IMG/VR virus record: IMGVR_UViG_3300005573_000055
Span: 64,001-128,000 of that record
Reading direction: 5' to 3' (one strand)
DNA from: a virus
Length of the DNA stretch: 64,000 nucleotides
This document shows, in pieces, positions 30,408-47,782 of the stretch (position 1 is the first letter of the stretch; every line of letters begins with the position of its first letter). The notes beneath the pieces were generated by a model. It did not search any database. It saw nothing but the letters and a program-made list of their open reading frames with translations, and was not told where the DNA came from. Position numbers and translations under genes: made by a program.

Positions 30408-30432
30408 CTGGAACACCTGGATTGGCAGAGGA

Positions 30433-31490: not shown

Positions 31491-31569
31491 AAGTAAGCAA
31501 ATTTTCTCGTGGATTGCTGGTCGAGGGCTATCAGGCAACCCACGCTAGCTATTTCAAACCTGTTTATGC

Positions 31570-31845: not shown

Positions 31846-32083
31846 AGTTTTCTTCTTTAAGCGTTTTTGCGAATCCTCTTGCAGCTTTACGCATTGCGTA
31901 GGCTGTAATAAACGCCATTTTGAAGAGTCCGTAGGTCATTTTAACGTCGTCAATGGTGGCTGTAACTTTGTCGGAGGCCTTCTGGATCTGCAGTTTGGCC
32001 TTTTTCTGTAGGTCTTGGATGTCTTCCTTTGCCGCTTGCTTGACTACTGGGAGTTCTTGCTTTAGGGCCTTGAAGAATTTCAT
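31823..32083 (-). CDS. Helical hypothetical protein (tandem paralog of 32080-32322)
   Basis: LKQELPVVKQAAKEDIQDL vs LKKELPVLKQAAKEDLQNL. Confidence 0.7.
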   Translation of the reverse strand: MKFFKALKQELPVVKQAAKEDIQDLQKKAKLQIQKASDKVTATIDDVKMTYGLFKMAFITAYAMRKAARGFAKTLKEENFEETNDF

Positions 32084-32322
32084 TGTTTATCCTCCTTTTT
32101 TAGCATTTCTTTTACGGTTATAGGTCTTTGGTTGGGTTTGGACATCATGTAAGCTGCCAGGAATCCTACTTTGACGGCTTCGTAGAACATTTTTGCTTCT
32201 TCAACAGTCTCTTTAGCCTTTTCTATCACATCTTTGGCGGTTTTGTCTAAATTCTGCAAGTCTTCCTTTGCTGCCTGCTTTAAAACTGGAAGTTCTTTCT
32301 TTAAGAGTTCTAAGAGTTTCAT
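32080..32322 (-). CDS. Helical hypothetical protein (tandem paralog of 31823-32083)
   Basis: Shared ELPVxKQAAKEDxQxL and FxxAYxM motifs; AAGGAGG RBS. Confidence 0.7.
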   Translation of the reverse strand: MKLLELLKKELPVLKQAAKEDLQNLDKTAKDVIEKAKETVEEAKMFYEAVKVGFLAAYMMSKPNQRPITVKEMLKKEDKQ

Positions 32323-32342
32323 TGTTACCTCCTTGGTTTTTG

Positions 32343-32591
32343 TTATGGCATTACACTTGCCCTGAGACGGGCTAAGATATCCTTGTATTTTCTCCAGCTT
32401 TCTTTGTAATCATCAGGTATCTGAATCCCGTCGCATATGCTCTGGACTCTGTCTATCTCGTCATACAGCCCTGATTCAGCAAAATTGTTCATGTGGTTTC
32501 GCATTTCGATGATTGTCTCCACGAAGGAGGCCTGAATTGCCTCCCTCGGGGTTAAATACTTTGGTACTAAATCACAGATTGAAGACTTCAC
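32343..32591 (-). CDS. Hypothetical protein
   Basis: Co-oriented ORF with RBS. Confidence 0.5.
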   Translation of the reverse strand: MKSSICDLVPKYLTPREAIQASFVETIIEMRNHMNNFAESGLYDEIDRVQSICDGIQIPDDYKESWRKYKDILARLRASVMP

Positions 32592-32599
32592 AGCCGCTC

Positions 32600-32884
32600 C
32601 TATTTATGTTCTAAAATGAATGTTGGATCTATGTAGGTGTATCTCTCAACATCCTCCAAGCGGACAACGCTGACGTACTCTAGGCCAGGACCTAATTTAA
32701 CTATAGCTTTAGCTCTGTCGGTGTAGCTTTTGATGATTGTGCTCTCTGGTTCAATACCCAGGCTTTCTAATCTGGACATGGCCTTCTGGATTGCAGCTTC
32801 GCGCAATAGGGTATCGTTGTACCTTGCCAGAAAGTCCTGAAGCGGCATTCTGTGCCCTTTGTGAACTACCATTATTTCTGCCAT
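32600..32884 (-). CDS. Hypothetical protein
   Basis: GGAGG RBS. Confidence 0.55.
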   Translation of the reverse strand: MAEIMVVHKGHRMPLQDFLARYNDTLLREAAIQKAMSRLESLGIEPESTIIKSYTDRAKAIVKLGPGLEYVSVVRLEDVERYTYIDPTFILEHK

Positions 32885-33124
32885 TTATTCCTCCGTTATT
32901 TGTTTTATGTGTTCGTTAACCATTCTTGCTAAGCCTTCATGTCTGGGAATAAGCGTAAGCTCCTTCTTCCCGGGGAGATATTGGCTGGCAATTACTGTTC
33001 GGCAGTCATTAATTATCTGACTTGCCGTCTCTCCCTCTTCAACCGAAATAGTGAACTTAATGGTCTCCTGGTGAAATCTTTCCAAGGGAGCTGAAAATTC
33101 GTATTCGATTTGCACAAGTTTCAT
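32885..33124 (-). CDS. Hypothetical protein
   Basis: AGGAGG RBS. Confidence 0.55.
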   Translation of the reverse strand: MKLVQIEYEFSAPLERFHQETIKFTISVEEGETASQIINDCRTVIASQYLPGKKELTLIPRHEGLARMVNEHIKQITEE

Positions 33125-33144
33125 TTTTCCTCCTTTGTTAGTTA

Positions 33145-33573
33145 TTATTTTCTTCCAGCATCAGCAGGTATCTCTCCCAGGCGGGCAGTGTCCCATTTTT
33201 CGAGTCGGAAATCCCCTTGCCTTAGGAGGTTCTTAATTGTCCAGCATGCTTTAAGCGTCTCTTCGTAATGGTTTATATTTTTCTTCTTAGGCTTACCATT
33301 TAGAGCCCAGCTTAAAGCAACCATTGAGTCTGAGAATACGATGGCCTTCTTGAAGCCTTTGGCAATCAGCCATTGGAGCCCGATAATTATTGCCACAAGC
33401 TCCAGGAAGTTGTTCGAATAAGGCTTTTGCGAGTCCCAGCTGTGGACTATACGTCCTCTATATGTCACTTTTGCGCCGCCTAAACCAGGATTGCCGGAGG
33501 ACCAGGCATCTACAGTTATATAGGGGTATTCCTCCCCTTCGGCGGTAATAACAGTTTTTTCCTTAACGATCAT
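33145..33573 (-). CDS. rnhA: Ribonuclease HI family protein
   Basis: ITVDAWSSGNPG, SNNFLELVAI, FSDSMVALSW, KWDT..LGEIPADAGRK. Confidence 0.88.
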   Translation of the reverse strand: MIVKEKTVITAEGEEYPYITVDAWSSGNPGLGGAKVTYRGRIVHSWDSQKPYSNNFLELVAIIIGLQWLIAKGFKKAIVFSDSMVALSWALNGKPKKKNINHYEETLKACWTIKNLLRQGDFRLEKWDTARLGEIPADAGRK

Positions 33574-33588
33574 TACTCCTCCTTGTTT

Positions 33589-33804
33589 TTATTCAACTGA
33601 TAAAGCTAAAGATAGCGGTCTATGCAGCACACTCTGCCCGCAGAATGGACAGATCTCCCTTTCTTCTATCATGTCTGTAAAGACTGTCATTCCGCAGGAT
33701 CTGCATACGATTACTGTTTGCTCTTCGGCGGGATCTTCGATTCTGTCAACGCCGAAAATTTCGTTAATAGAAAACAGTTCTTCCGGGCGGAGAATTATCT
33801 CCAT
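33589..33804 (-). CDS. Small zinc-ribbon protein
   Basis: CRSCG ... CPFCG. Confidence 0.6.
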   Translation of the reverse strand: MEIILRPEELFSINEIFGVDRIEDPAEEQTVIVCRSCGMTVFTDMIEEREICPFCGQSVLHRPLSLALSVE

Positions 33805-34030
33805 AGTAACCTCCTATTTTTTGTTAATAAATTGGTTATTTTATGTGGTGCAAAGAGTAGGCTTTTTTGATGCAGAGCTTACTCTGCAGTCTGCCCTTTG
33901 TGTTTCGGATGGCGCTTGTAGACGGTTTTCGGCGTTATCGGCCTACTCACCTTCTTTGGCAGCGGAATTCTGATCTTGGGTTTTTTGATCTTAGTACCTT
34001 TCATTTGATTATCTCCTATTATGTATAGAG

Positions 34031-34051
34031 AAAGCGGCATTTAGCCGCTTT
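34031..34051. terminator. Hairpin terminator (possibly bidirectional)
   Basis: AAAGCGGC-ATTTA-GCCGCTTT right at the stop of 34051-34497. Confidence 0.55.
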
Positions 34052-34497
34052 TAATCCAAATAATCGTCTAAAGCCTTTTGACGCAGTGGTTCTAAGGCAT
34101 CCATGATTTCGTTGATGCCGTCCCACTGCTCTTCGGCGTAGTTGAACTCTTTGACCCTAAGAGACTGCTTGACTTTTCGGAAAGTCTCCGGGTCAAGCTT
34201 TCCGGAGTAGACCTGCAAAACGGAGGCTGGAACTGGACCGTCTGTGATGCGTAAGCTGAATCTCTCTCTTGGGAACACTCTGTCGGCTGTTGTGTCCCCT
34301 TTGAGGGATACGTCGTGCTGATCTTTAAGCGACGGCCACTTACAGAGAACAACTGCTCTGACAACGTTCTCTGAAATGATGTCTGTGATAACGAACTCGA
34401 GGTTTTTCTCGGGATATTTCCAGATCTGGCCTTCTTCAAGGCGATCTGGTTTGTTGAGTAAATACTCAAGATAAGCGTGTTCTTCAAAGTGTGTCAC
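34051..34497 (-). CDS. Hypothetical protein
   Basis: 148 aa; AGGAGG RBS. Confidence 0.6.
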   Translation of the reverse strand: MTHFEEHAYLEYLLNKPDRLEEGQIWKYPEKNLEFVITDIISENVVRAVVLCKWPSLKDQHDVSLKGDTTADRVFPRERFSLRITDGPVPASVLQVYSGKLDPETFRKVKQSLRVKEFNYAEEQWDGINEIMDALEPLRQKALDDYLD

Positions 34498-34700
34498 AAT
34501 TCCTCCTTTAATAATTGTTGCAGGTATAATTTATCACTTCTGCGCATGGCCCTTCTTATCTTGGCCTTTAGGTGACCTTTGGGCCTGCTTTTGTTGTTGC
34601 GCTCCTTTATCCAGCGATATTCTTCAGTCAGGCGTGCTGGATAATGGAGCTGTTCATTTTTAACCATTAGTTCCTCCATTTTAATTGTCTTTGTCTGCAA
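34494..34700 (-). CDS. Small basic protein
   Basis: Co-oriented ORF. Confidence 0.45.
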   Translation of the reverse strand: MQTKTIKMEELMVKNEQLHYPARLTEEYRWIKERNNKSRPKGHLKAKIRRAMRRSDKLYLQQLLKEEL

Positions 34701-34862
34701 TTTCAGTGATTAATGTGAACAAAGCGAACAGGAATATCATTCCGAACTCGTATGCCATAATAGCGGGTCTATCGTCCCCCGTTTCGTTACAGTATATGGC
34801 AACTGAAAATATGATAACCAGTGATAACAGAGCAAGGAAGATGAGTGATTTCATTTTACCTC

Positions 34863-35147
34863 CTATGATAATTTGATTTTAATTAAGATATATTCAACCG
34901 CTTTGCCGTCCGGAGCAACAGCGGTTCTTAGTTCGTAGTAGTTTTTGAGTTCGAATGAGTCGAGGATCTCAGTTTTGTCCATAACCTTCTTGTTTAAGGG
35001 AACTAATTCGATAAGATAGGCTTCCCAAACTTCGCCTTCTCTGGCGAGTTTGGCATTTATAAAGGCTGGGAAGATCACCTTCCCGTCTTGAAATATCGGA
35101 GCGCTTGAGAGCTTCCCGTACTTATCTTTTGTTACTTTGAGTTCCAT
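34863..35147 (-). CDS. Truncated duplicate of the N-terminal domain of 35161-36087
   Basis: MELKVTKDKYGKLSSAPIFQDGKVIFP...EGEVWEA vs MELTITRNKFGELAGSPIFQDGKVIFP...EGEVWEA. Confidence 0.7.
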   Translation of the reverse strand: MELKVTKDKYGKLSSAPIFQDGKVIFPAFINAKLAREGEVWEAYLIELVPLNKKVMDKTEILDSFELKNYYELRTAVAPDGKAVEYILIKIKLS

Positions 35148-35160
35148 TTTTATCTCCTTG

Positions 35161-36087
35161 TTAGTTTATAATCTCTTCTGAGAGGACGGTTTCTCTCTCT
35201 AAGCAGTGTGAAACCTCTTTGAATTCGAGGATTTCACTGCTTAATTCTTTGAAACCTTCTCTTTCGAGGGGTAAATTGTGATCAGCTGTCCATTTATATC
35301 CAATCTGTGCTATCTTGGTATAGCAATAGCGACGTGAGTCAACTCTTGACTCACGGACATTATCCTCACTGTTAGAATATTTTGGAGCGTAGCTGCTCCA
35401 TCTTTCAATAATTCTCTTTACTTTTCTGACATCGATGTCCAGCTCAAACTCTTTGGATTCGACTCTTCTTGACAGAAATTCCTTCTCTACCACCTCGAAG
35501 GTTGTAGTGTCTTTTACGAAGCCGCGGTATTCAGCGACTTCCTTCTCTATATTCTCCCAGACTTTTAATTTCTTTGCATTCAAGTCGACTTCGCAGTTGT
35601 AGTCGCTGCTGAAGACCTTTCCGGTTGCGACTACTCTGATGATTTTGTTGTCAATAGACATAACTCTCTTGTATGTCTCTATTTCTTTTTTGTATTTATC
35701 GGCGATTTCAACAGGCAGATCTTTCCAATAGAAGTAGTAATTCGTATGGTCTGCCTTTACTTTCCCACCGACTCTGTAATATTTGATGTATGAAACCCCC
35801 TCTAGTATTCTTACATATCCATTAGAATAATAGTGCTCTTTGATTTGAGGGGCCGGCAATTCGGGAAGGATCAAGCGAAATACTCCCTTGAACATAGGTT
35901 TCCCTTTGCGGTCAACCTTGTTTAAGGGAATGAGCTTTACCAGTTCGGCTTCCCAGACTTCTCCTTCTTTGGCGAGTTCTGGGTTTTCAAAGACCGGGAA
36001 GATTACCTTTCCGTCCTGAAAGATTGGAGAGCCTGCGAGCTCTCCGAACTTATTTCTAGTTATTGTTAATTCCATTTTCATCTCCAT
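35161..36087 (-). CDS. Hypothetical protein
   Basis: 308-aa ORF downstream of a motif-bearing intergenic region. Confidence 0.65.
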   Translation of the reverse strand: MEMKMELTITRNKFGELAGSPIFQDGKVIFPVFENPELAKEGEVWEAELVKLIPLNKVDRKGKPMFKGVFRLILPELPAPQIKEHYYSNGYVRILEGVSYIKYYRVGGKVKADHTNYYFYWKDLPVEIADKYKKEIETYKRVMSIDNKIIRVVATGKVFSSDYNCEVDLNAKKLKVWENIEKEVAEYRGFVKDTTTFEVVEKEFLSRRVESKEFELDIDVRKVKRIIERWSSYAPKYSNSEDNVRESRVDSRRYCYTKIAQIGYKWTADHNLPLEREGFKELSSEILEFKEVSHCLERETVLSEEIIN

Positions 36088-36131
36088 ATGTTAGTTCACG
36101 GTCTCGGAGTGGTAGATATCCACTCCTTTGC

Positions 36132-36210
36132 CAATACTAATGTAGTTCGATTGACAGTGTGTGTTAATGCAGGCGTGTGTGTGTCCTGGCGGCTTTCCTT
36201 TTAGCCGCCG
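36132..36210 (-). promoter_or_regulatory. Repeated (AC)n...AATCGAACTACATTAG motif, copy 1
   Basis: + caatactaatgtagttcgatt followed by GT tracts and a GGCGGCT/AGCCGCC hairpin; 20/21 identical to 36505-36525. Confidence 0.65.
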
Positions 36211-36243
36211 CGTGATTGGAATTATCCGCCAGCACATAAAAAA

Positions 36244-36468
36244 CTATTTCAGCAGATATTCCTTTTCGATCTCGTTTGTCTTCTCGTCGTAGCGGTATAC
36301 CCATACTACCGCATCGTCGCTGACAAGTCCGGATTGGATGCGCTCCTTGAGGAGCTCGTAATCTTCCTCCGTCATTAGGATGCCGGAGGCGTCGTGAATG
36401 CCACCGTCGGCGATGAAGAATACGCCGTAAGGACGGGGATCTTGTGAAAATATTGATAGTAAGTCCAT
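36244..36468 (-). CDS. Hypothetical protein paralogous to the C-terminal half of 19928-20341
   Basis: PYGVF...SGILMTEEDYELLKERIQSG...IEKEYLL. Confidence 0.65.
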   Translation of the reverse strand: MDLLSIFSQDPRPYGVFFIADGGIHDASGILMTEEDYELLKERIQSGLVSDDAVVWVYRYDEKTNEIEKEYLLK

Positions 36469-36504
36469 GTTACTCCTCCTATTTTAAGTGTTGTTTATTA
36501 TCAT

Positions 36505-36607
36505 CAATGCTAATGTAGTTCGATTAATAGATGCGTGTGTGCTAATGGGAGCGTGTGTGTGTCAATGCGGGCGTGTGTGTGTCGAGGCGGCTCCCCTTTT
36601 AGCCACC
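36505..36607 (-). promoter_or_regulatory. Repeated (AC)n...AATCGAACTACATTAG motif, copy 2
   Basis: + caatgctaatgtagttcgatt followed by GT tracts and a similar hairpin. Confidence 0.65.
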
Positions 36608-36773
36608 GCACGTTCAAAATTACCCCTTAGTGGGGTAATTAAAAAAAATAAATACAATATTCACCCGATGAAAGGTGAATATATGGAAGGCTCATCAGCC
36701 CTCCTCCTTTTGTTTGACTGCCCCACTTTCCCGGGGCTTGGGGTTTTTTAAGGTGGTTTTCTCCACCATCATT

Positions 36774-36822
36774 GCCCCCACGCCAGACTTGAACTGGCTG
36801 CTGGCCCTACCCAGGGTGGGGC
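36774..36822 (-). ncRNA. Anticodon-less tRNA-like element A
   Basis: GCCCCAC-C-CTGG[GTAGGG]CCAG-CA-GCCAG[TTCAAGT]CTGGC-GTGGGGG-C: acceptor-like stem, D-like hairpin, canonical T arm. Confidence 0.75.
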
Positions 36823-36842
36823 GGCAAGGTAGGCAGACGTGA

Positions 36843-37130
36843 CTATTTAATCACGTCGCCTACCTTGTACTCGGGGTTGTGGCTTACTGAAACCACGTAT
36901 CCCCCGAGTTTGGGGTCAAAAACTGCGATGCTGCCGACGGTGTGCGCATACTTATGTATGAGCACTGCGGCTACCGGAAGGGATGCTGGCCCGTTGACTT
37001 TTAGCAACGGGATCCCTTTAATTTCCGGGGCGTTGTCTTTTACAAACTGAACGAGTTCGGCGTTTGTTGCCGGGTCGCCGAACCCGATCGTTAATGTGTC
37101 GTTATTAAATGACATATTGAATAATGCCAT
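36843..37130 (-). CDS. csx3: Csx3/Crn3-family ring-nuclease-like protein
   Basis: LKVNGPASLPVAAVLIHKYAHT...AVFDPKLGGYVVSVSH...KVGDVI, close to the Csx3 signature HKYAHT..AVYDPRLG.VV.SH...GDVI; GGAGG RBS at MALFN. Confidence 0.88.
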   Translation of the reverse strand: MALFNMSFNNDTLTIGFGDPATNAELVQFVKDNAPEIKGIPLLKVNGPASLPVAAVLIHKYAHTVGSIAVFDPKLGGYVVSVSHNPEYKVGDVIK

Positions 37131-37176
37131 GTTAACCTCCTTTTTAAAGTTATTAAATAATAATTTATGATGAATT

Positions 37177-37231
37177 TGGCTCAGGCGGGACTTGAACACC
37201 GCTCTCTCAGGCTTCCAGCAGCCACTGAGCC
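37177..37231 (-). ncRNA. Anticodon-less tRNA-like element C
   Basis: GGCTCAG-T-GGCT[GCTGGA]AGCC-TGAGAGA-GCGG(T)G[TTCAAGT]CCCGC-CTGAGCC-A. Confidence 0.7.
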
Positions 37232-37237
37232 ACCACA

Positions 37238-37630
37238 CAAGCTATCTTAGTAGCTCGATAGCTTGCAGTCTCGCTGATCACCCCTTCCCTTGAGCTCCGA
37301 TGCTACTATCGTTGCTCAAGGTTCCGTCGGGTTTACTCAGCTACCCGAAGCCCAATTAGCGTTACCCAGGACGCGCCACGTGGAGGCTTGGGCTTTTGCG
37401 TCCCACAACATTACTGGCTAAGTGGGACAGCCAGTGTCCGTTATGTGGCTGATCCGTGGAGCATTGCACTCCGGTGAGTGGACGCCACATCGGCCTGCTG
37501 AGGCGAGGCCACACCTTGGGTCTTCGAGCCGCTTGGGCGGAATGGGTCCACGGCTCTGAGACCCATAAACCTATAAGCCAGGCTTAGCCTAGCTTATAGG
37601 CTATTCTTTATCCCCTTAAAGGGACCACAT
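37238..37630 (-). ncRNA. Hairpin/pseudoknot-dense non-coding tract (candidate structured RNA)
   Basis: Perfect 7+7 bp pseudoknot at 37400-37435; stems CCTTGAGC/GCTCAAGG, AAGCTATC/GATAGCTT, CCTATAAGC/GCTTATAGG, ATGTGGC/GCCACAT. Confidence 0.6.
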
Positions 37631-37763
37631 AGACACGGCGGAGGTAGGTTGGTTATATGACCCGGGTTAGGTGGGGTCCGCCGCTGATACATGCGAGCAG
37701 AGCGAATGTAGACTAAGTAGGTATAGCTCTGGCTTCCCGGGTCTGGTTGGTCTTCGCAAGGGA

Positions 37764-38014
37764 GTGTGTGTAGGCGGAGCGGGTACATGGAAGGTTTTAG
37801 CGACCCAGGTTAGGTGGGCACCGCCGGGTACACATGTGAGGTGGGGACGGAGCCATGGATGGTTTTAGCGACCCATGGAGGGGTGGTAGACTGGGGCGTG
37901 TGTGAGGCGGAGCGGAGGTGGGTTGATTTAGGGTCAACAGGTCAGGTTAGGTTGGCCCAGGTTGGTCAGGCTGGACAGGCCTCCGTTGGGGGCGTGTGTG
38001 AGGCGGAGCGGAGG
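37764..38014 (+). repeat. G-rich direct repeats
   Basis: GGGGCGTGTGTGAGGCGGAGCGGAGG at 37893 and 37989 (variant at 37764); CATGGAWGGTTTTAGCGACCCA at 37786 and 37854. Confidence 0.75.
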
Positions 38015-38023
38015 CCTGTCTTG

Positions 38024-38389
38024 CTAGTCTAACTCGCTCCAGTCGAAGCCGTTAATTCTAACTACCGGCTTCTTCTTTGTAATCGCTGAAGCGAGTTTCC
38101 TAGCGTTGCAATACGCTGGCCGTGCACCACAATTGACGTGCAGCACTTCGGCAACGATCTCTTTCCAGTTATTCCTCTCTTTGAGACGTTGCACGTACCA
38201 GTGCTCCACGTTGGGTCGGGTATCTTTGATGCCACTGCCCCATTTGATCTGGATAGCATAAGCTATCCCATCAATTATGACAATGACATCAATCTTGGCC
38301 TCGTGGTCAAGGCGTTTATGTGTAATCACCTCGAATCCACTATTCCTGAGCGCATCGACAATCATGCGCTCGAGGATGAGACCATTCAT
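38024..38389 (-). CDS. PD-(D/E)xK restriction-endonuclease-fold protein
   Basis: LERMIVDALRNSGFEV...DHEAKIDVIV...AIQIK. Confidence 0.7.
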   Translation of the reverse strand: MNGLILERMIVDALRNSGFEVITHKRLDHEAKIDVIVIIDGIAYAIQIKWGSGIKDTRPNVEHWYVQRLKERNNWKEIVAEVLHVNCGARPAYCNARKLASAITKKKPVVRINGFDWSELD

Positions 38390-38880
38390 AATGCCCTCCC
38401 GTTGTGGTTTAGCCAGCTACGATCTGGCTCGGGCAGCTTCTTATAGCCCTCCTGTGGGTCGAATTGATAGATCTCTACATTGAAATGATGGAGACCTATC
38501 AACATCCCTATCAGGGCCGATAGACCAATCGGACCGCTGAGGACTAATTTTATCTTGCAATTTTGGTTTTGTGCCATAGCACTGTAAACCTCTGTTGCAA
38601 GTTTTTTATAGTCCTCGTCGGTCACTAACATTGGTCTACCGAGCACGAGGTTGACGTCTATCAGCGTGTCAAGTTCGCCAAAGTAGGCTTTGACAGCTTC
38701 GCTAACAGGACGTCCTACCTGCAGGGCTATAATATAGTCCTTGCCGCCTTCATTGGCATATTTTTTCTTCTTGGCAATCTTGGTCTGAGACCAGATTTTA
38801 ACAGTGATTGCCAAGGAGACTAATGCCAACAAAGGCTCGGCAATAGCCCAAGCCTGGGAGATGAATTCAAAGAGGTTCAT
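38386..38880 (-). CDS. N-terminal TM helix plus short SAVED-like domain
   Basis: IKLVLSGPIGLSALIGMLIG...VEIYQFD...Y resembles the C-terminal SAVED signature (IHLFxxGPxxLAxxLG...VYx...Y). Confidence 0.65.
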   Translation of the reverse strand: MNLFEFISQAWAIAEPLLALVSLAITVKIWSQTKIAKKKKYANEGGKDYIIALQVGRPVSEAVKAYFGELDTLIDVNLVLGRPMLVTDEDYKKLATEVYSAMAQNQNCKIKLVLSGPIGLSALIGMLIGLHHFNVEIYQFDPQEGYKKLPEPDRSWLNHNGRAL

Positions 38881-38932
38881 GACTGCCTCCCGATGGCTAA
38901 ACTTAGAACTGGTATAACGGTCTATAGAATGG

Positions 38933-39754
38933 CTAAACTATCCTGCCTCCGTTATACCAGTACATGAACCCTCCTGGAGCCCATTTTGTCCTAAGCCCCA
39001 TTCTCAGTTCAGGGAACTTTCTGGAAACCTCATCAAGATATTCCATAGTGGTCTCCAGCGGCAATGGTCGCCAATCAATTCCAGACACGGGCTTGTATAC
39101 CCTGACTGTCCAGAATTTATTGTCGACATTGCCATGCTTAACAACCATCTCTGCGATGTGCAGGAAATCATCCAAGGTGGTTGTAGAAAATACGCATGTG
39201 CGTACATCTACAAGCACACCTTTATTGCTTAAGATCTCCTGAACACGCAGGGAGTTGTTGAGCATTTTTTCTCCCTGACCGTTTCTGAGGCCAGCGCGCA
39301 TATTGAATTCTGCGCCGTCTGCGGCCTTAAGATCAATTGCTGCATAATCCAAATACGGCAGCAGCATTTCAACAAATTTAGGACTGCTGCCATTATGCGC
39401 AATTGAAATCTTCTGGCCACGTTCAGCACAGAAGCGCGCTATATCCATAGAGTCTTTGATAAAGACACAAGGATCGCCTCCAGAAAGACGAATCCTTTCG
39501 CCTTTATCTAAGGACTCCTGGATCAGAGAGAATATCTCTGAGGCTTTATATCTTCCGGCAGTGATTATGTCACCTTTGTCGGTGACAAACTGCCCGTCGC
39601 GTTTGCAATATGGGCAGTGGAAGTTACACCTGCCGAAAGAGATAATCCTCATCATCTCTATTTCCCTACCAAATAACTTGAGGAAATAGGCCGGTCGCAC
39701 TTCTGCAGCCGGCTTTCCTCCGTAGGGAATGAGAGTGAGTATTCTCTCTTTCAT
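38933..39754 (-). CDS. Radical SAM enzyme (NrdG/PflA activase-like)
   Basis: CNFHCPYC, LSGGDP, HNGS, DYAAIDLKA, VDVRT; GGAGG RBS at MKERIL. Confidence 0.9.
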   Translation of the reverse strand: MKERILTLIPYGGKPAAEVRPAYFLKLFGREIEMMRIISFGRCNFHCPYCKRDGQFVTDKGDIITAGRYKASEIFSLIQESLDKGERIRLSGGDPCVFIKDSMDIARFCAERGQKISIAHNGSSPKFVEMLLPYLDYAAIDLKAADGAEFNMRAGLRNGQGEKMLNNSLRVQEILSNKGVLVDVRTCVFSTTTLDDFLHIAEMVVKHGNVDNKFWTVRVYKPVSGIDWRPLPLETTMEYLDEVSRKFPELRMGLRTKWAPGGFMYWYNGGRIV

Positions 39755-39813
39755 GTGGCCTCCAGGCTGGAGGTTCATGTTCATTGATTTATTTTATCTA
39801 TTATCTACTATCC

Positions 39814-42576
39814 TTAATCCTCCTTTCTTAATTTAAACTTAACGCTGAAGCCAGTCGGCTTGCCAGTCTTAACACTGATGTAAGGATATACCTCGTCAAC
39901 TCGGTAATATCCTTCATCAATGTTGCGGCATTCATCGCCGACTTTGAACTTCAGCTTCTGACCGCCTACTGAGATGCTAAAGGTCTTTATTTCTTTGCCA
40001 TTAGCATCTCTTTCGGCGGTAATTTCTACGAGTGAATCTCTGTGTTTTGTTCTGGCATTGATGTCCAATGCTTCGAACATTTCACAGAGATTCAGCTCGT
40101 CAGCGTATACCCGCACCTCGAACGTTGGCAGTGCGGCATTAAAGAAGTTGCTTGTGGCAATATACCACTTCAACTCCTTGGTGCCGCCAATGCCAAGCTC
40201 GCAGAGCACCTCAAGGAGTACCTGCCATACGCCATTGATGAACAGGTATCCTTGAGATTTGCGCTTCTGCGGGTCATTGCTGGTTGCTATGTATTCGAGG
40301 ACCGAATATACAACAGCCTTTTGGTCCTCTTTACATAGTGCCATGAACTGCAAAGAATACTTCTTATTAATTTCTCGTATCTTTGCAATTCTGGCATCAA
40401 CGTCTCGCTTGAGCTCTTCGATTTTATTAAGAGCTGCAATTTCGCCCTTATAATCGAAGTAGCTCCTGAGTTTTCTGCCGTATTTAGCGAGACGCTCAGC
40501 AATGGCCTGCTGCTGGCGCACACTCAGGTGCGGGTACACCTGGTCGGCAATACCAGCCTGCAGCTTGCCAAAGACCTCTTTGACAATTCCGTTCATATTT
40601 CTGACGAAATTGTCAATTATGGAGTCTTTGACAATCCGAGAATCCCCTTCCTCTCTGAAGAATCGAGGAGCAAGGAATGCAAAGCATTGAGACTGCTTGA
40701 TTGCATCAATGCAAGCCTCAACCTTTACCGCCTGCTCTTCATATCCTTCAGCTGAACCCTTCTGGACTCTATCAATAATGGGTTCAAACTGGAAGGAATT
40801 CTCCTGCAGGGTCTGGTAGAGGGCCATGAGATCCTTGTCTTTGTTGCCAAAGACGAAGATCTCGACCTTTAGGGCAGCCTTAAGCATCTCAACATTGGCT
40901 GCGCGGCCAATGATGTATGCTTTGCCCGCGAAGTCTCTAACAGATTGTAATAGTTTTTCATCTTCTGTTAGAGTTGGCCCGATAGCTTTGATAGCTGTGG
41001 CGGTAAGTGTATCTACAAGACCGCTTACAGCCATGAAAGCTTTGGCCACATCTGCGGGCAGGTTGCCCTTAGGTCCGGCTGCCTGAGGAGCTTCGGCTTT
41101 AGCCTTAGCTTCCCCATCAAGAGGTGTTTCGGCAGCTGGTACCCACTCTACATTACTCCAACCAGCTTTGCGAACAATAGAATATTCGCCAAGCTGATTT
41201 GGATTTCTGTAGAGCAGATACTTGCCTCTGCCCTTCTTGATGAGGACAAAGCTATCGTCGAAATCAGGACCGCCGTGTCGGGGTTTGAGTCTGAGATACT
41301 CATCCCAGCCAACGCACACGTTGTTCTGATCGACAATAACTCTGCCTTCAGGCAGCCTTCCGAAGAATACCTTGCCATCTTCGACTTTAACGATAGATGT
41401 AAGGTATCTTCTTTTGGCCCCTGGCACGAAGACTCTGGGCCATTGGGACTCATCGGCTTTGCCGGTGCCCCATTTTGGCCCATAGAACTTCTTGCCGACC
41501 AGCCGAATAACGTCCATGACCAGAGGTCTAAAGACGCTCCAGTCTACTCCGGCTTTGATGAACTCTTTGAGTCTCCACCCGCTACTGCCAAGTGGATTGA
41601 GCTCATCTTCTTCCGGATCAACGTTGTCCGGCATTGTCTCTTCGGCATCGCCGTCGTCGATGCTGAGGATGATCTCGTTAAATTTCTCACGATCGGTGAG
41701 AGCATTAACAATATATCTCACCGTCTCACCGAGATATTTAACGAGTTTTTCGGCCCTCAGCTGACCAACTGCCAATAGATTGAGTGCAGATTGCACATCA
41801 ATCATGACGTGGTCGTTGCCGTGGACCTCCTCAGCAATCGCCCAGACAACATCACGAGCTTTGACGCCGTGGTCTTTGCACCACTGAGCGTTAATGGCAA
41901 GCTCGCGTTTGATGTTGCTTTCGGCGATATAAATATCGTTAACAGGGACTTTGTTGGAAACAACAATGTGTCCCTTAACGAATTTATCACCGAGCAACAT
42001 CGTGATGCTGCCTCGACGGCGAACGCCGAGTAGCGCTGCGGCGCCGCTGCCAGCAACTACCTGGCCGTCTAAGGCTATGTAACCAGGTATATACTTAATA
42101 TTAATATACTCTGGTATAGCCTTGAGGCCTTTGGCCGAAGATAGCCTCAACAGTCGGCCGATTCTCTTTCCAGCCGTCTGTTTGTTGGCATCTTCTTTGG
42201 CCTTAATCGGTAGCTGCATCAGCTTTCCAGCACTGTCAAATATTTTGACAATGTACAGATCTGTATCTTTGTGATAACAGATCGTACTATTGTCAAAATG
42301 ATTTGCAATGCTGTCAAGCTGCGGCTTGGTGTCATTGCCGATAGTCGAGTGTTCAACTATCGTCAAGACCCAGCCTTCAGCAAAAGCATCTATAAATCCT
42401 GGTCTGAGATCAGGATTATAGAACTTTTGCTGAACTGGCAGCGCTCCGATCAATTCCTTTTCGGCAGCTAAGATGGCTTGCTTGCTTTCTCCGTAGAGAT
42501 AAGCAGTGAAGCCATCCTGATAGTTGCCGATTAGGAATGCCTTAACTGTCATGGCAGCCTCCTTCATGCTTGCCAT
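39814..42576 (-). CDS. YonO/cellular-RdRP-like single-chain two-barrel polymerase with atypical DFDD loop
   Basis: GKRIGRLLRLSS, LDGQVVAGS, KFVKGHIVV, IYIAESNIK, RVFVPG, HGGPDFDDSF, LLYRNPN, IGRAAN, IIDRVQKG parallel RdRP/YonO motifs. Confidence 0.72.
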   Translation of the reverse strand: MASMKEAAMTVKAFLIGNYQDGFTAYLYGESKQAILAAEKELIGALPVQQKFYNPDLRPGFIDAFAEGWVLTIVEHSTIGNDTKPQLDSIANHFDNSTICYHKDTDLYIVKIFDSAGKLMQLPIKAKEDANKQTAGKRIGRLLRLSSAKGLKAIPEYINIKYIPGYIALDGQVVAGSGAAALLGVRRRGSITMLLGDKFVKGHIVVSNKVPVNDIYIAESNIKRELAINAQWCKDHGVKARDVVWAIAEEVHGNDHVMIDVQSALNLLAVGQLRAEKLVKYLGETVRYIVNALTDREKFNEIILSIDDGDAEETMPDNVDPEEDELNPLGSSGWRLKEFIKAGVDWSVFRPLVMDVIRLVGKKFYGPKWGTGKADESQWPRVFVPGAKRRYLTSIVKVEDGKVFFGRLPEGRVIVDQNNVCVGWDEYLRLKPRHGGPDFDDSFVLIKKGRGKYLLYRNPNQLGEYSIVRKAGWSNVEWVPAAETPLDGEAKAKAEAPQAAGPKGNLPADVAKAFMAVSGLVDTLTATAIKAIGPTLTEDEKLLQSVRDFAGKAYIIGRAANVEMLKAALKVEIFVFGNKDKDLMALYQTLQENSFQFEPIIDRVQKGSAEGYEEQAVKVEACIDAIKQSQCFAFLAPRFFREEGDSRIVKDSIIDNFVRNMNGIVKEVFGKLQAGIADQVYPHLSVRQQQAIAERLAKYGRKLRSYFDYKGEIAALNKIEELKRDVDARIAKIREINKKYSLQFMALCKEDQKAVVYSVLEYIATSNDPQKRKSQGYLFINGVWQVLLEVLCELGIGGTKELKWYIATSNFFNAALPTFEVRVYADELNLCEMFEALDINARTKHRDSLVEITAERDANGKEIKTFSISVGGQKLKFKVGDECRNIDEGYYRVDEVYPYISVKTGKPTGFSVKFKLRKED

Positions 42577-42600
42577 GCAGTTTTTGGCTTCTCTTCTATT

Positions 42601-43392
42601 TTAGAAGGACATCAAGCTTGGTCTTTCGCCAAGCTCTTCGAGCTTGCGAAGACTAGCTTGATATGTTTCCTTTAAGTATGCTAATGTCTCCTTGTATTGG
42701 GCAACAAAGTCTCGCTTCATCTTACGGGCGAGACTGTTGCCAAATTCCTTTTTGAAATGGGCCGTTTTGTATTTAATATATTTGGCCCAATTTTTGATCT
42801 TTTTCCGGAAATATTTAACATCCCGGAAAATTTCTTTGTATTCTTTTAACCAAATCTTTTCGGCTTTTTTAGCCTTTTTGATTTGGTCGAATAATTTAGC
42901 TGCAGCATCCATAATGGTAAGATGCTTCTTACCGATTATGTCTACTGCCGTCCATGCGGATTTGGCACCGACTTCTTGTGCCTTCTCTGCATAGAACTTA
43001 TTCAGTTGCTCAATTGATTTATTAAGCTTTTTGAGCACTGAACTGTAAATTCTTTGGGCTCTGGTCAAACCGATACCGCGTACCGTGACCTGACCCTTCA
43101 TTCTTCTAAGGGTGGTGACGGCACGGGCTTTGTCGACCAATTTGTAAGCCCACTGAAGCTTCCAGCTGAGCCTTCTGACTCTAGCTTTCAGCTTTTTTTC
43201 TGTCTCATTCATTTTATTTATTTTGATTTTTGGGGCCCTTGCCACCTTGTCCTTTAGGACGAGGAGCTTGGCGGCCTGGACGGCGCCGGCCCCGACAGTT
43301 TTGTCCCCCGAAGCGGCTCTGTGGAGCACATCACGAGCCTCCTTCAGGGTGGCTGGCAGTTCTACCAGCCAATCCTTTTTAATTTTTTTCAT
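42601..43392 (-). CDS. Highly basic Lys/Arg-rich helical protein
   Basis: Very high K/R content; start moved to MKKIKK with GAGG RBS. Confidence 0.7.
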   Translation of the reverse strand: MKKIKKDWLVELPATLKEARDVLHRAASGDKTVGAGAVQAAKLLVLKDKVARAPKIKINKMNETEKKLKARVRRLSWKLQWAYKLVDKARAVTTLRRMKGQVTVRGIGLTRAQRIYSSVLKKLNKSIEQLNKFYAEKAQEVGAKSAWTAVDIIGKKHLTIMDAAAKLFDQIKKAKKAEKIWLKEYKEIFRDVKYFRKKIKNWAKYIKYKTAHFKKEFGNSLARKMKRDFVAQYKETLAYLKETYQASLRKLEELGERPSLMSF

Positions 43393-43399
43393 GATTTCC

Positions 43400-43720
43400 T
43401 CAAATTTTTGCTTGCAATACACCGGCGGTTTTTGTATATTGCAAGCGGTTTTGGTTTTTACCAAACCGCCCTTAGCCGGGTAGCGTGTTTAGGCACGCTG
43501 CCCGACACATCTAATTGAATTTAGCGTCCCAATTAGCAAGGACGGTGCGTTGAAAAAGCAAGTCGCACGCTTGCCCTGTCAAACTCTACGGCACTGACAG
43601 GCATGCCCTTGTTGATTTGGCGCCACGAACCAGGCTCAACAAGCCAAGCCTGAGCAAAGCAGGAAGCGCGCATCGGTGGCACACCTCGCCGAAGCGGGTG
43701 CTCATGCGTGCTGCAATTAT
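43400..43720 (-). ncRNA. Structured leader/ncRNA upstream of the basic protein-polymerase operon
   Basis: Stems GCTTGCAATA/TATTGCAAGC, GCGGTTT/AAACCGC, CCTGTCA/TGACAGG, CTCAGGCT/AGCCTG; pseudoknot at 43511-43544. Confidence 0.55.
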
Positions 43721-43770
43721 TTTTATTCCCCGTGTGTGTTATATTACACAGGGAACAATTCTAAAAAAAA

Positions 43771-43830
43771 TAGTTCGATTCAAGTGTGTGTGTGTGGCGT
43801 GTGTGTGATGCACGCTACGCATACACATAA
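43771..43830 (-). promoter_or_regulatory. (AC)n...AATCGAACTA motif, copy 3
   Basis: + tagttcgatt followed by GT-dinucleotide tracts. Confidence 0.6.
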
Positions 43831-43861
43831 AAGCGATTCAATCGTTAATCAACTAATTGAA

Positions 43862-45058
43862 TCACTTTTTTATTAACTTGAGGGCCGCCTTGAGACCCTC
43901 AAGAATACCGTCGACATCGCGGACATCCACTCTGTCGACGTATAGGATTTTCCCATCTCCTACAGTACGCCATCTTGCACGTGGAGTACTGTATTTATAA
44001 GCATAATTATCCAAGTAAATCCATGTGGACTTACCGGATAATTTATTGTCTTCGAGATGGGAAATCCCATCATAGTCGCCAATGTAGAGGATATAGTCGA
44101 ATTGACTATATATCTCACGCTGGCGACTTTCCTCATCAACGTCTTTTTCTATTATGCTGCCATTTGAATTTGGCGCATAATATACTGAGACGTTGATTTC
44201 CTTGGCGAAATTAGCTAATTCTTGGGCGATCTTTTTAGTTGCGCCCGAGAATGTTACACAGGACCCGCTCTCATCGTTGGTGATGAGAATCTTTGGTCCG
44301 TCGTTCTTTCGCCAAGGATCATATACTGCGGGCAACGGATTTCTATGCGTTGCCCGCAGTATTTCATACTTTAGAGGGTTGATCTTTTCTTCCTCAATTG
44401 TGGGTAACCCTCTCAAACCCCACAATTGGGCCAAAATTTCAGCACAAGCCGCCTCTGTGCGGCGATCGATTTCAATGTCGCCGCCGCCACCAACACATGT
44501 GGCCGGCGACTTGTGCTTATGAATTAATTTTATTTTTGCATCGGGATTTCCATCAAGCTGTTTTTTGACAGCTTCCCGATGCTTTTTAATTAATTCTTGC
44601 TTCTTCCGTCTCTTATAAGAGACGAGAAGAGCTAAATTTTTATTGAGGGCTTCTTGTGCCTTTTCATAATCCTGAGCGTCTTTACGCCCAAGATTATCAG
44701 GCTTTGAAGCCCTCTTTTTGGGCGAGGAGGGCTTGTCTTTGCCTTTGCCCTCCTCTTTCCCATTTCGAATCTCTTGATTAGCGACGCTATCGCCCCCATG
44801 ATAGTCGTCGCTAATTTTTTCAATAGCGTCTTGCACCTCTGCTTGCATCTGGTGCAGACGCTTTTCTGAAACTTTGTAGAGTTTTCCACCGCCCAGCTTC
44901 AGCGCCTCATCCATTGTGAGGTCCCTGCAGAAGCCAGGGCCATATATAAAACTATGGACACCATTTTCATATAAGGTGCCCTTTTTCAGATCCGGTACGT
45001 ATTCATAATGATATACTTTACCGGATCTATCTGTAATCAAAAAAGTGATTACTTTCAT
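43862..45058 (-). CDS. VWA-like (MIDAS) partner of the MoxR ATPase
   Basis: LITNDESGSC (DxSxS), LYIGDYDG; charged linker; follows MoxR. Confidence 0.7.
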   Translation of the reverse strand: MKVITFLITDRSGKVYHYEYVPDLKKGTLYENGVHSFIYGPGFCRDLTMDEALKLGGGKLYKVSEKRLHQMQAEVQDAIEKISDDYHGGDSVANQEIRNGKEEGKGKDKPSSPKKRASKPDNLGRKDAQDYEKAQEALNKNLALLVSYKRRKKQELIKKHREAVKKQLDGNPDAKIKLIHKHKSPATCVGGGGDIEIDRRTEAACAEILAQLWGLRGLPTIEEEKINPLKYEILRATHRNPLPAVYDPWRKNDGPKILITNDESGSCVTFSGATKKIAQELANFAKEINVSVYYAPNSNGSIIEKDVDEESRQREIYSQFDYILYIGDYDGISHLEDNKLSGKSTWIYLDNYAYKYSTPRARWRTVGDGKILYVDRVDVRDVDGILEGLKAALKLIKK

Positions 45059-45074
45059 ATTTTCTCCACTCTTA

Positions 45075-45123
45075 GCCCCCACGCCCGACTTGAACGGGCT
45101 GCTGGCCTGATCCAGGGTGGGGA
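45075..45123 (-). ncRNA. Anticodon-less tRNA-like element B
   Basis: TCCCCAC-C-CTGG[ATCAGG]CCAG-CA-GCCCG[TTCAAGT]CGGGC-GTGGGGG-C; compensatory A-T to C-G change in the T stem relative to element A. Confidence 0.78.
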
Positions 45124-45128
45124 ACCAT

Positions 45129-45860
45129 TTAACAATATTCGGACTTCAACGCCTTGAAGGCGTTGAAGCCGATGATTTCAATTAATTTCTTTCTAGTCTC
45201 GGAAGGATCGCCGGTCTCCTTCCAGAGACTTGTCCAAAAGGCGGGTTCGGGTAGCCCGCCTTGGACTTTTTTGATTAAATTTGCCATCTCTATCGCGGAT
45301 GGCGATTTAAACGCATCCTCTCCGCGAAGAGAGGCTAAAATGCTTTTAATTACATTCTTGTATTCCAGGCCGGCGTCCTGGAATACAAGACGGTCAGTTA
45401 CCTCGCTATACCCCACGTAGGTCCTGACCGTAAACCTACGCAAGGTTTCTTCTCGCAACCCCCTTCTGTTATTGGAGGTCGCTAAGAAGATAATCTGCTC
45501 TGGGCGGTACTGGATTTCCCGCCCCATTATCTCAATTAAGCTGTCCTCCAAGAGTGGAAGGAGGAGATCCTCCACTCTTGGTTTGGACTTATCGATCTCA
45601 TCGAGGAGAATTATTACCTTCTCCTCGAGAGAGGCTTCCAACCCCTTTGTTAGAGGGGTGGAGAATAAATGTAGTAAACCGTCGACAACCGTCCACCCGA
45701 AGAACAGCTCTTCGGGGGTGAGGCTATCGGTTATCGACATTTTAAACATTTTATAATTAAACCTTTCCGCCAGCCTCTTGGCGGTAAAGGTTTTCCCAGT
45801 CCCGGGTGGTCCCCAGAGGAGGACCTTGTCTCCGGGCTGGAGCCAATTTATAATATCCAT
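45129..45860 (-). CDS. MoxR-family AAA+ ATPase
   Basis: WGPPGTGKT, ILLDEIDK, TSNNRRGLREETLRRF; start moved to MDIINW. Confidence 0.88.
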   Translation of the reverse strand: MDIINWLQPGDKVLLWGPPGTGKTFTAKRLAERFNYKMFKMSITDSLTPEELFFGWTVVDGLLHLFSTPLTKGLEASLEEKVIILLDEIDKSKPRVEDLLLPLLEDSLIEIMGREIQYRPEQIIFLATSNNRRGLREETLRRFTVRTYVGYSEVTDRLVFQDAGLEYKNVIKSILASLRGEDAFKSPSAIEMANLIKKVQGGLPEPAFWTSLWKETGDPSETRKKLIEIIGFNAFKALKSEYC

Positions 45861-45869
45861 CTTATTTTT

Positions 45870-46495
45870 CCTTAAAATCCGCCACCGATTCCCCTCCCTT
45901 GGTGCGGGTTGCTGCATCAACAGGCACCTAAATCCTGTTGACGCCCTGCGGGTTGAGGGTGGGTGACTACACGACTCGTCTTCCACCCTGAGGGGCGCCT
46001 TAGGTGGGCCACTCTATCCGTCAAAGCCTATTATCTAGCAGCCCAGTTATCTACAGTATACCGCTAGTAACAGGCACATGCTAGACGGATAGCCATCTTC
46101 ACTCAGCTATAATCGTGAAGATGGGAGCCCGTTCGGCTTCGTAACCACAAGAGAATGTCCAGAGTATAACTGTATTAAAGTTATAGCCCTTTAATACAGC
46201 CTTCTGAATATGGACATTCTCCCTTTTGTCCGCCTACCCGGCGCAGAGAAAGTTAAGTCGTGTTAGCTATCTCTGCTACCGCTATGTCGGCAGACAAAAA
46301 ATACATAGCTCCGTTGTTTAAAGTGGGATACGGCACCACTGTTAGACCCTTTTGATGGTCATAGATACCTCCTTTCTCTGCTCCTTTTCCGCCGGCGGCA
46401 TAGCGGAAACGGAACAGCTTAAGTTAAACATTATCCAGCCGCCTTTTAACATGGGGTGGGCTCGCAGCAAGAAAGCATGCCTCTGCCCACCCCAA
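45870..46495 (-). ncRNA. Long hairpin/pseudoknot-dense non-coding tract with a micro-ORF
   Basis: Stems GAGAATGTCCA/TGGACATTCTC, CTGTATTAAAG/CTTTAATACAG, CCATCTTCAC/GTGAAGATGG, CTATCCGTC/GACGGATAG; pseudoknot at 46224-46309. Confidence 0.6.
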
Positions 46496-46504
46496 AAACA
46501 AAGA

Positions 46505-46745
46505 CCTGGTCTCTTCCTTCTGTCCCTTCTATCTCTATTTCCCTCCCTCTCTGTCTCCCATCTCCATTCTCTTCCCCTCTCTGCCCCTTCCATCTCTGTT
46601 CCCTCTCCCTTTCTGTCTCTCCTATCTGTATATCCCTCTCTGTCTGTCTATCCTCTCTGCTAACCCATTTCCCTCTACCTGCCGTTCTTTCTTGCCTTCT
46701 TCCCTCACTTTTTCCCTCATTTCTTCCCTCGTCGCCTGCTTGCTT
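46505..46745 (+). other. Polypyrimidine/polypurine tract at the divergent transcription junction
   Basis: + strand overwhelmingly C/T (tctctatttcccctccctctct...). Confidence 0.75.
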
Positions 46746-46906
46746 ACACCCCGTGGGCTCGAACTGGCTTTGCCTTGCTGCTTGGATTTTGCTGGCTGAA
46801 TTTTTACTTTTCCAAATTTTGAGTTCTTCCCTATAGGCGCTCTGTTGCTTGTGTGCTTCTTTTTCTTTAGATTTGCGCATTTAAGTAAAATCTCTTTGGT
46901 GAGACA

Positions 46907-47782
46907 ATGGACTTAGGCTTGTGGACTGTGGTTATTAAGTTTATTTCAGTGCTTAAGCTTCTGTCGGCGTATATTTTGAATGCCTGCGAAGATAAAAGGT
47001 ACGTTAGGTTTCTTGTGTGGGAGGCTGTTATTGATACTTCTTTGATAGTGGGTTTTTTCTTGTTGGAGCATTTTCACTTTAGGTGGGAGCCTTCGACTGG
47101 AAGGTTATTGATGTTTGTGATGAATGCTTGGCTGTTGTTTTTGTTGGATGGATTTGCTTTGTGGGTGATTGTTTTGAGTTTGATAGTTGGAACTTTGTTG
47201 ATTTTGTTTGTGGGTGGGTATTTGTCTTTGATCTTGTGGTGTTTGATCTTGATGTGGTATTTTTGGGCAAAGGAGAGAAGGGATTTTGTTTCTGCGGCAA
47301 TTGGGAGTGTTTATGCTGTGAATTTGATTAGGCTTTTGTGGTATGCTTTAAATCTTGACTGGAAGATGGTGGCTTATACTTTCGATTTGGTGTGGCAGTA
47401 TGGGGTTTATGTTGGTATTATATTCCATTGCGCAAGAAAACATCAGTCTGCCAAAAAGGAAAATTCTCTCCAGCGGCCAAAAACTGCTGAGATTATCTAC
47501 CCTCCTTGGATTGAAGAGCTAAGTGAGCGTGAGCTTGAAGTCCTCTGCTGGCTTTCTGCGGGGCTTAAGAGTGAAGAAATTGCTGAGTGTATGTATATTT
47601 CTAAAAGAACAGTGGATTACTATCGCTCTGAGCTTAAGAGGAAGCTAAAGTGTAACAGTGTTGCTGAGTTGATTAGGCTTACCGTGGAAAATAGGGATGT
47701 TTTGCTTCGTAGGTTAAATAAGATTGATTCTTCTGGCTCTAAGAATGGTATAAGTAACGGTATTGGTAAAACTACTAGGTAG
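46907..47782 (+). CDS. Membrane-anchored LuxR-family regulator
   Basis: Several N-terminal TM segments; LSERELEVLCWLSAGLKSEEIAECMYISKRTVDYYRSELKRKL. Confidence 0.88.
   Translation: MDLGLWTVVIKFISVLKLLSAYILNACEDKRYVRFLVWEAVIDTSLIVGFFLLEHFHFRWEPSTGRLLMFVMNAWLLFLLDGFALWVIVLSLIVGTLLILFVGGYLSLILWCLILMWYFWAKERRDFVSAAIGSVYAVNLIRLLWYALNLDWKMVAYTFDLVWQYGVYVGIIFHCARKHQSAKKENSLQRPKTAEIIYPPWIEELSERELEVLCWLSAGLKSEEIAECMYISKRTVDYYRSELKRKLKCNSVAELIRLTVENRDVLLRRLNKIDSSGSKNGISNGIGKTTR

Follow-up and report, generated by a model that had tools for sequence, protein, structure and literature searches.

A family of phage and bacterial mobile-element proteins with the predicted fold of single-chain two-barrel RNA polymerases and an acidic loop ahead of the R-N-P motif

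We analysed a window of 64,000 nucleotides, bases 64001-128000 of a 155.5-kb IMG/VR virus record (IMGVR_UViG_3300005573_000055) rated 88% complete and carrying a terminase and a portal. An open reading frame (ORF) at 39814-42576 on the minus strand is open for 920 aa, and its product, P0001, is by its AlphaFold2 (AF2) model and fold matches a homologue of single-chain two-barrel polymerases. We consider P0001 to be probably a nucleotide polymerase of the clade that holds the RNA-dependent RNA polymerases (RdRPs), YonO, and the Thermus-phage RNA polymerases (RNAPs), and most likely an RNA polymerase that the element encodes for use on DNA entering the cell. The P0001 family was previously unannotated and is carried by phages and by bacterial integrative elements. 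What this analysis adds is a set of members in bacterial integrative elements, next to conserved anti-restriction neighbours, and a copy in what looks like an acquired phage island. In all members the acidic loop precedes the R-N-P motif, and a literature search found no description of a two-barrel polymerase with an acidic loop ahead of R-x-P.

The AF2 model of P0001 was built on a family alignment of 123 sequences (A4). It reached a predicted local distance difference test (pLDDT) score of 75.3 and a predicted template modelling (pTM) score of 0.72, with pLDDT 88-94 across residues 381-480 and mostly 81-92 across residues 124-260, falling to 61-70 at 141-160. A single-sequence AF2 model scored a pLDDT of only 36, and the ESM Atlas model was poor (pLDDT 0.37), with meaningless structural neighbours. 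Foldseek comparison of the A4-based model with the PDB placed maize RDR2 (E 1.4e-5), QDE-1 (~1e-4), and Arabidopsis RDR2 at the top, with a probability of 1.00 over ~800 columns and E values for these three matches of 1.4e-5 to 1.8e-4; Thermus-phage RNAPs came next. In an exhaustive VIA structural search of 48,161 PDB representative chains, which is independent of Foldseek, five chains scored Z of at least 8, and every one is a single-chain two-barrel RNA polymerase: ZmRDR2 (Z 12.7, 532 aligned residues), P74 gp62 (Z 10.0, 428 residues), QDE-1 (Z 9.6, 496 residues), and P23-45 gp96 in two crystals (Z 8.8, 271 residues; Z 8.4, 264 residues). Because no other kind of chain reached Z 8, we regard the P0001 family as a new member family of the RdRP/YonO clade. 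The RDR2 and QDE-1 alignments extend to about residue 795 of P0001 and cover its helical region, and through these whole-chain matches the predicted structure has two double-psi beta barrels (DPBBs) in one chain. PolD DP2, a two-barrel DNA polymerase, scored Z 5.5 over residues 121-494, and residues 150-250 alone align to isolated DPBB domains (p97-N and a designed DPBB) with Z ~5. In BFVD, two uncharacterised Caudovirales proteins matched (E 4e-18 and 6e-15), followed by phage proteins annotated as RdRP. An earlier note on this DNA had proposed a polymerase homologue of the cellular-RdRP/YonO kind and, possibly, a distinct polymerase family. The first proposal is borne out by the model and by both structural searches, and the second by a DxDD loop and an RNP motif that are conserved in non-canonical order.

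Relatives numbered 15 among 1.84 billion representative proteins. Scanning contigs from viruses, metagenomes, and genomes for patterns gave 28 further loci, and 119 further proteins, all of them named 'hypothetical', were retrieved with the bacterial member P0012 as the query. At ~20% identity to P0001, the 123 sequences of A4 are invariant for K137, R141, G171, K201, G202, D260, Y391, D438, D440, D441, R457, P459, N460, E464, and R638. Residues D170, T192, K223, Q262, and N266 are retained in at least 121 of the 123 (D170 in 122), and G557, N561, D602, and K606 in all A4 sequences covering those positions. Since they are conserved across a 123-sequence family at this level of identity, the motifs of P0001 are not chance occurrences. 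Among the P0012-seeded proteins, Pfam domains were found on one alone, the fused form P0128. This protein of 943 aa spans 64% of P0012 and in addition carries N6_Mtase, Eco57I, and HsdM_N domains; this combination reflects either fusion to a type I/IIG methylase or an artefact of assembly or frameshift.

All two-barrel RNAPs are reported to have eight residues in common, namely the three Asp of DxDxD, the R and P of R-x-P, which lies ahead of the Asp triad in the same barrel, and one Asp and two Lys in the other barrel (PMC2919709). Thus R446/P448 of Rpb1 lie ahead of D479-483, and Rpb2 contributes K979, K987, and D837 (PMC2919709). We observed the same canonical order in YonO and five relatives, where R-[SN]-P is followed by D-x-D-G-D 43-47 residues later. 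In the P0001 family, three invariant Asp are present with the spacing D438-x-D440-D441 instead of DxDxD, within an acidic loop of the consensus GG-x-D-x-D-D, and R457 and P459, although invariant, stand 16 residues after the triad and not N-terminal to it, an offset found throughout the alignment. Residues of the kind found in the other barrel are present as well, with K137, R141, K201, and D260 invariant and D170 kept in 122 of the 123, as candidates for the canonical basic and Asp positions. The earlier note had listed a series of motifs in a fixed order, a metal loop GGPDFDD instead of DxDGD, and an RNP motif located after that loop; all of these are found in P0001 in the order given. It had also suggested checking the conservation of DFDD and RNP in homologues. 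The three Asp and R-N-P hold in 123 of 123 sequences, whereas the second position of DFDD can hold Q, L, M, or F.

On the minus strand of the window, the first barrel (DPBB-B-like; residues 124-260, 41797..42207) carries K137/R141, D170-G171, T192, K201-G202-H203, K223, and D260. It includes the GKRIGRLLRLSS motif (residues 136-147, 42136..42171) with the invariant K137 and R141, the DG motif (residues 170-171), the KGH motif (residues 201-203, 41968..41976), in which K201 and G202 are invariant and which aligns to 'WVKGLL' of YonO, and IYIAESNIK (residues 215-223). The catalytic barrel region (DPBB-A-like; residues 381-480, 41137..41436) is supported by model confidence (pLDDT 88-94) and DSSP. 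It begins with RVFVP (residues 381-385) and contains the GGPDFDD acidic loop (residues 435-441, 41254..41274) with its three invariant Asp and the YRNPNQLGE loop (residues 456-464, 41185..41211), in which R457, P459, N460, and E464 are invariant and which aligns to 'LRSPHLFRE' of YonO. A helical region follows (residues 508-812, 40141..41055) with IIGRAAN (residues 555-561) and IIDRVQKG (residues 600-607), whose patterns IG..aN and IID..K are collinear with 'IGEYSN' and 'IDFAK' of YonO. The C-terminal beta domain (residues 817-920, 39817..40128) resembles the N-terminal domain of Cas12f/TnpB (VIA Z 6.6-7.1 over 93-97 residues, root-mean-square deviation ~3.2). In the model this is only a fold resemblance, below the Z 8 level.

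Several observations weigh against our assignment of P0001 to this clade and to a polymerase function. The canonical DxDxD signature and the order R-x-P then Asp are both absent from the family. P0001 has no match in Pfam, PHROGs, PADLOC, NCBIfam, PDB phmmer, phage megablast, or phage tblastn searches, and PF05183, the eukaryote-type RdRP model, matched neither P0001 at E <= 1 nor 15 family members at E <= 0.01. A word-indexed protein search with P0001 or with the profile A1 returned P0001 itself alone, and the profiles A1 and A4 gave only coiled-coil noise, and no polymerase, against PDB sequences. Alignment of A4 by hhalign to YonO alone, a thin single-sequence target, had a probability of 0.1%, and to a seven-member YonO-family alignment, again a thin profile, a probability of 1.3% (E 0.04), which is not significant. 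No sequence method ties the P0001 family to any polymerase. Isolated DPBB domains aligning to residues 381-480 were not present in the VIA lists, a result that is uninformative either way. The gene neighbours of the phage copy are unlike those of the bacterial copies. Finally, the assignment of the fold, though well supported, is that of one predicted model.

The alignment with the seven YonO relatives, statistically weak as it is, is collinear for nine motifs. Given as family then YonO, these are DG with TDGCG, KGH with VKGLL, NIK with SQFK, DIQ..N with YQMLQTL, RIPVPG.R.Y with KLLVSDARYTY, YRNPNQ.GE with LRSPHLFRE, IG.aAN with IGEYSN, IID..K with IDFAK, and ILW with TLW. In this alignment the RNP motif of the family occupies its usual slot, the Asp loop lies in extra sequence inserted after RIPVP and before RNP, and DNDGD of YonO falls opposite a non-conserved linker of the family (residues 488-533) that has low model confidence. 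Because the weak but collinear alignment leaves RNP in place and puts the Asp loop in an insert, it suggests that the acidic loop was moved rather than RNP. The 'displaced RNP motif' of the earlier note would thus be better described as a displaced acidic loop. The secondary structure of the model has strands in the 388-422 region (including 412-415, a tight turn, and 419-422), a helix at 424-433, and then the Asp loop; after this loop come a strand at 442-449, a tight turn, a strand at 452-456, R-N-P, and strands at 465-470 and 477-480. The canonical C-terminal unit of helix, Asp loop, and last strand may accordingly have been relocated in front of the RNP hairpin, the second helix being lost, and the moved unit would keep its place in the barrel despite its new position in the chain. 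The acidic loop is one residue shorter (DxDD), and both it and the strand after it precede the RNP hairpin, whereas in the canonical arrangement they come ~45 residues after that hairpin. Alternatively, instead of a transplanted C-terminal unit, the Asp loop may now occupy the pseudo-symmetric loop of the first half-barrel. We compared native and swapped column orders with the seven-sequence YonO profile, both whole-chain and barrel-only. Swapping columns 417-450 with 451-474 gave scores of 11.6-16.9, against 12.8 for the native order and 12.8-16.9 for random block swaps, so that with this profile the test is powerless. Small barrels of the double-psi kind interconvert by simple rearrangements, as was shown experimentally (PMC11258233), and a rethreading of the catalytic barrel is therefore not implausible. 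Tentatively, and with more doubt than confidence, we propose that the barrel is rethreaded and its DxDD-shortened two-metal site still works, and that the protein serves as an 'establishment' polymerase, carried by phages and integrative elements among their anti-defence genes and making RNA on newly arrived DNA with no need of the host polymerase.

Since the kinds of residues conserved in P0001 match the eight that are universal in two-barrel enzymes, its most likely activity is templated RNA synthesis with two Mg ions. One barrel would supply the basic K137/R141 and K201 and the acidic D170 and D260, and the other would supply the acidic loop D438-x-D440-D441 and the R457-N-P459 loop, so as to make RNA on a nucleic-acid template. 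We favour an element-encoded RNA polymerase because the characterised relatives YonO, QDE-1, and P23-45 gp96/gp64 are template-dependent RNA polymerases. On account of its gene neighbours, we further propose that the enzyme works soon after the element's own DNA has entered, transcribing or priming on that DNA, and that it does so without depending on the RNA polymerase of the host.

Bacterial members are present in metagenome-assembled genomes of Ignavibacteria, Bacteroidetes, Marinimicrobia, and Chloroflexi and in Stygiobacter electus, and their distribution is sporadic, with 4 carriers among 301 genomes sampled in one phylum. In one recurring arrangement, the genes downstream of the polymerase encode a Mu-Gam/Gp157-like protein, a protein of unknown kind, and ArdC (ArdcN plus MPTase-PolyVal); in the other they encode DUF932, Gam-like, and RadC proteins. 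One such locus also has a type I restriction-modification system, Fic, and a phage-type integrase. The bacterial copies reside in integrative elements. Genes of the ArdC/Gam/DUF932/RadC type are used by mobile elements to survive entry, and the set of ArdC, Gam-like, DUF932, and RadC genes is typical of the first-entering ('leading') regions of transferred elements. It is conceivable, although unlikely, that the enzyme is primase-like and makes short RNA on phage DNA and on the single-stranded DNA (ssDNA) with which conjugative or integrative elements enter, so that synthesis of the complementary strand can start. Its position next to ArdC, an ssDNA-binding anti-restriction protein, and to Gam-like, DUF932, and RadC genes is consistent with this, as is the preference of QDE-1 for ssDNA templates (PMC2950127). 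By contrast, the loci inspected showed no transfer genes, and no replication genes lie beside the phage copy. A primase role also largely overlaps with the early RNA polymerase that we favour, from which it differs in product length and use alone. Upstream regions of the bacterial copies have no general conserved block in common. Between the polymerase and DUF932 genes of the Marinimicrobia-type loci L012, L014, L015, L017, L022, and L030 there is a non-coding block of 40-55 nt that is 76-83% identical and lies ~50-130 nt past the polymerase stop.

The phage carries a single copy of the polymerase family. It lies in a G+C-rich island at ~30-47 kb of the window (0.43-0.51, compared with 0.33-0.37 across most of the genome), which, at 30000-47000 (0.42-0.51 against ~0.35), looks like acquired defence or counter-defence cargo. 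An ORF of 287 aa and no known family (42601..43464, minus strand) ends 24 nt upstream of the polymerase start, and the two are probably co-transcribed because of this short distance. Downstream of the polymerase is a radical-SAM gene (38933..39784, minus strand) with weak NrdG-, viperin-, and MoaA-like matches, all below curated cut-offs. Further down the minus strand are a SAVED-like protein (PADLOC SAVED4, 8e-19) and a Csx3-like protein (Pfam 2.9e-11, PADLOC 7e-17), and upstream of the polymerase gene are a 406-aa ORF without a known family and a MoxR-type AAA_5 ATPase. The closest homologue of P0001, P0003, has gene neighbours unrelated to those in the window. Divergent LuxR-type and HTH regulators are also present beside these island genes.

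Two direct repeats of 53 nt, at 36769-36821 and 45070-45122, are 87% identical and 8301 bp apart, and they bracket the block from Csx3 to the 406-aa ORF with the polymerase gene inside. On the minus strand each repeat folds into an acceptor-like stem and a 5-bp stem with a 7-nt TTCAAGT loop that resembles a tRNA T-arm. There are compensatory changes between the two copies, and ARAGORN calls no tRNA. Possible explanations for the repeats are sites of RNA processing and att-like remnants left by an insertion. Within 28-50 kb of the window neither a tRNA nor an Rfam family above threshold was detected. A match to RF00094, the hepatitis delta virus ribozyme family, that stays below threshold but spans the full model length is located at 37347-37406 on the minus strand (35.6 bits versus a gathering threshold of 50, E 0.068), in a repeat-rich gap between a 121-aa ORF and Csx3. 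An intergenic element with (AC)n-rich tracts followed by AATCGAACTA and TAG[TCA]ATTG occurs, in minus-strand reading, at 36132-36230, 36505-36625, and 43771-43830, upstream of three minus-strand island genes. The last copy (43771-43830) precedes the polymerase operon, and the element looks like a common promoter or regulatory site.

This setting bears on another role, which we judge to be quite unlikely, namely that P0001 is a functional RdRP that uses element or host transcripts as templates for antisense or double-stranded RNA, in counter-defence or regulation. The closest solved folds are RNA-silencing RdRPs, the phage copy stands among genes of RNA and nucleotide immunity (Csx3 ring-nuclease-like, SAVED-like, radical SAM), and the 8.3-kb block is bounded by two tRNA-like minihelices, a type of 3' end used by viral RNA replicases. 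However, the characterised relatives from bacterial viruses (YonO, crAss gp66, P23-45 gp64/gp96) are DNA-dependent, QDE-1 itself also uses DNA, and the bacterial neighbours ArdC, Gam, DUF932, and RadC concern DNA entry. The 280-nt leader upstream of the polymerase operon, moreover, has no significant structure (z = -1.55). It is very improbable that P0001 derives from a polymerase but has lost that activity and now, for instance, binds nucleic acid or hydrolyses nucleotides, with the DxDD loop employed in another metal-dependent reaction. Such a loss might be suggested by a signature that is non-canonical in spelling and position, by the failure of every sequence model to recognise P0001, and by the extra Cas12f/TnpB-N-like domain at its C terminus. 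Against it, residues of all eight universal kinds are invariant in homologues that are ~20% identical and come from phages and several bacterial phyla, which is what one would expect if the two-barrel active site works.

The same genome may encode another polymerase. In a 1040-aa ORF at 6073-9195 of the window (minus strand), GLKG and VRNPVIW are followed ~55 residues later by SDCDGD, which is the canonical two-barrel order. This ORF has no match in Pfam, PHROGs, the PDB, the YonO profile, or the P0001-family profile. Judging from its motifs, it may be the phage's other polymerase, and it is the only candidate that we found for the beta/beta'-type RNAP that the earlier note had ascribed to this genome.

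A sizeable family thus keeps all the residue types of the two-barrel active site, yet their order is reversed and the loop is shortened. If active, its members would widen the definition of an RNA polymerase, would explain why motif and hidden Markov model searches miss these proteins, and would provide a natural test case for topology change in small beta-barrels. Should the rethreading hold true and the site still work, even the most ancient active site of polymerases would allow the topology of its chain to change. The repeated location of the gene by anti-restriction and DNA-end-protection genes in bacterial elements, and in a counter-defence-like phage island, points to a candidate role in the first minutes after DNA entry.

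In every two-barrel RNAP described in the literature consulted (from cellular RNAP to QDE-1, YonO, crAss gp66, and P23-45 gp96), the R-x-P loop is followed by the DxDxD loop, and this order has been a signature for finding two-barrel enzymes and an anchor for reconstructing their origin. The best structural matches of P0001 are the eukaryotic RdRPs, that is, plant RDR2 (7W82, 7W84, 7RQS, 7EU1) and QDE-1 (2J7N, 7Y7P-T), with Z 9.6-12.7 over ~500-550 residues. Like these, P0001 has both barrels in one chain, helical elements after the catalytic barrel, and the N-terminal motif order K..R, DG, KG, IK, D.Q..N, R.P.PG. Unlike these, the P0001 family has no sequence match to PF05183, has a DxDD that precedes RNP where the RdRPs have a DxDGD that follows it, lacks the RRM and head domains of RDR2, and is found in phages and bacterial mobile elements. 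QDE-1 is a template-dependent RNA polymerase on ssDNA and RNA (PMC2950127 and PMC9508822). YonO of the Bacillus prophage SPbeta, a proven template-dependent RNA polymerase on DNA (PMC5467207), is similar to P0001 in its size (839 versus 920 aa), in being phage-borne, and, in the statistically weak profile alignment, in motifs that are collinear along the whole chain. It differs in that YonO and its relatives have D-x-D-G-D 43-47 residues after R-S-P, where the P0001 family has the non-conserved linker at 488-533. The Thermus phage RNAPs (P23-45 gp96/gp64, P74-26 gp62, P32 gp64; PDB 8H2M, 8F5M, 8F72) match P0001 with Z 8.4-10.4 over 264-453 residues. P23-45 gp96 and gp64 act on phage DNA (bioRxiv 10.1101/2022.12.01.518664), and gp96 is fused to a tape measure protein. 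In contrast to P0001, the Thermus phage enzymes have a canonical DxDxD (DFDGD in gp96; bioRxiv 10.1101/2022.12.01.518664) and other accessory domains.

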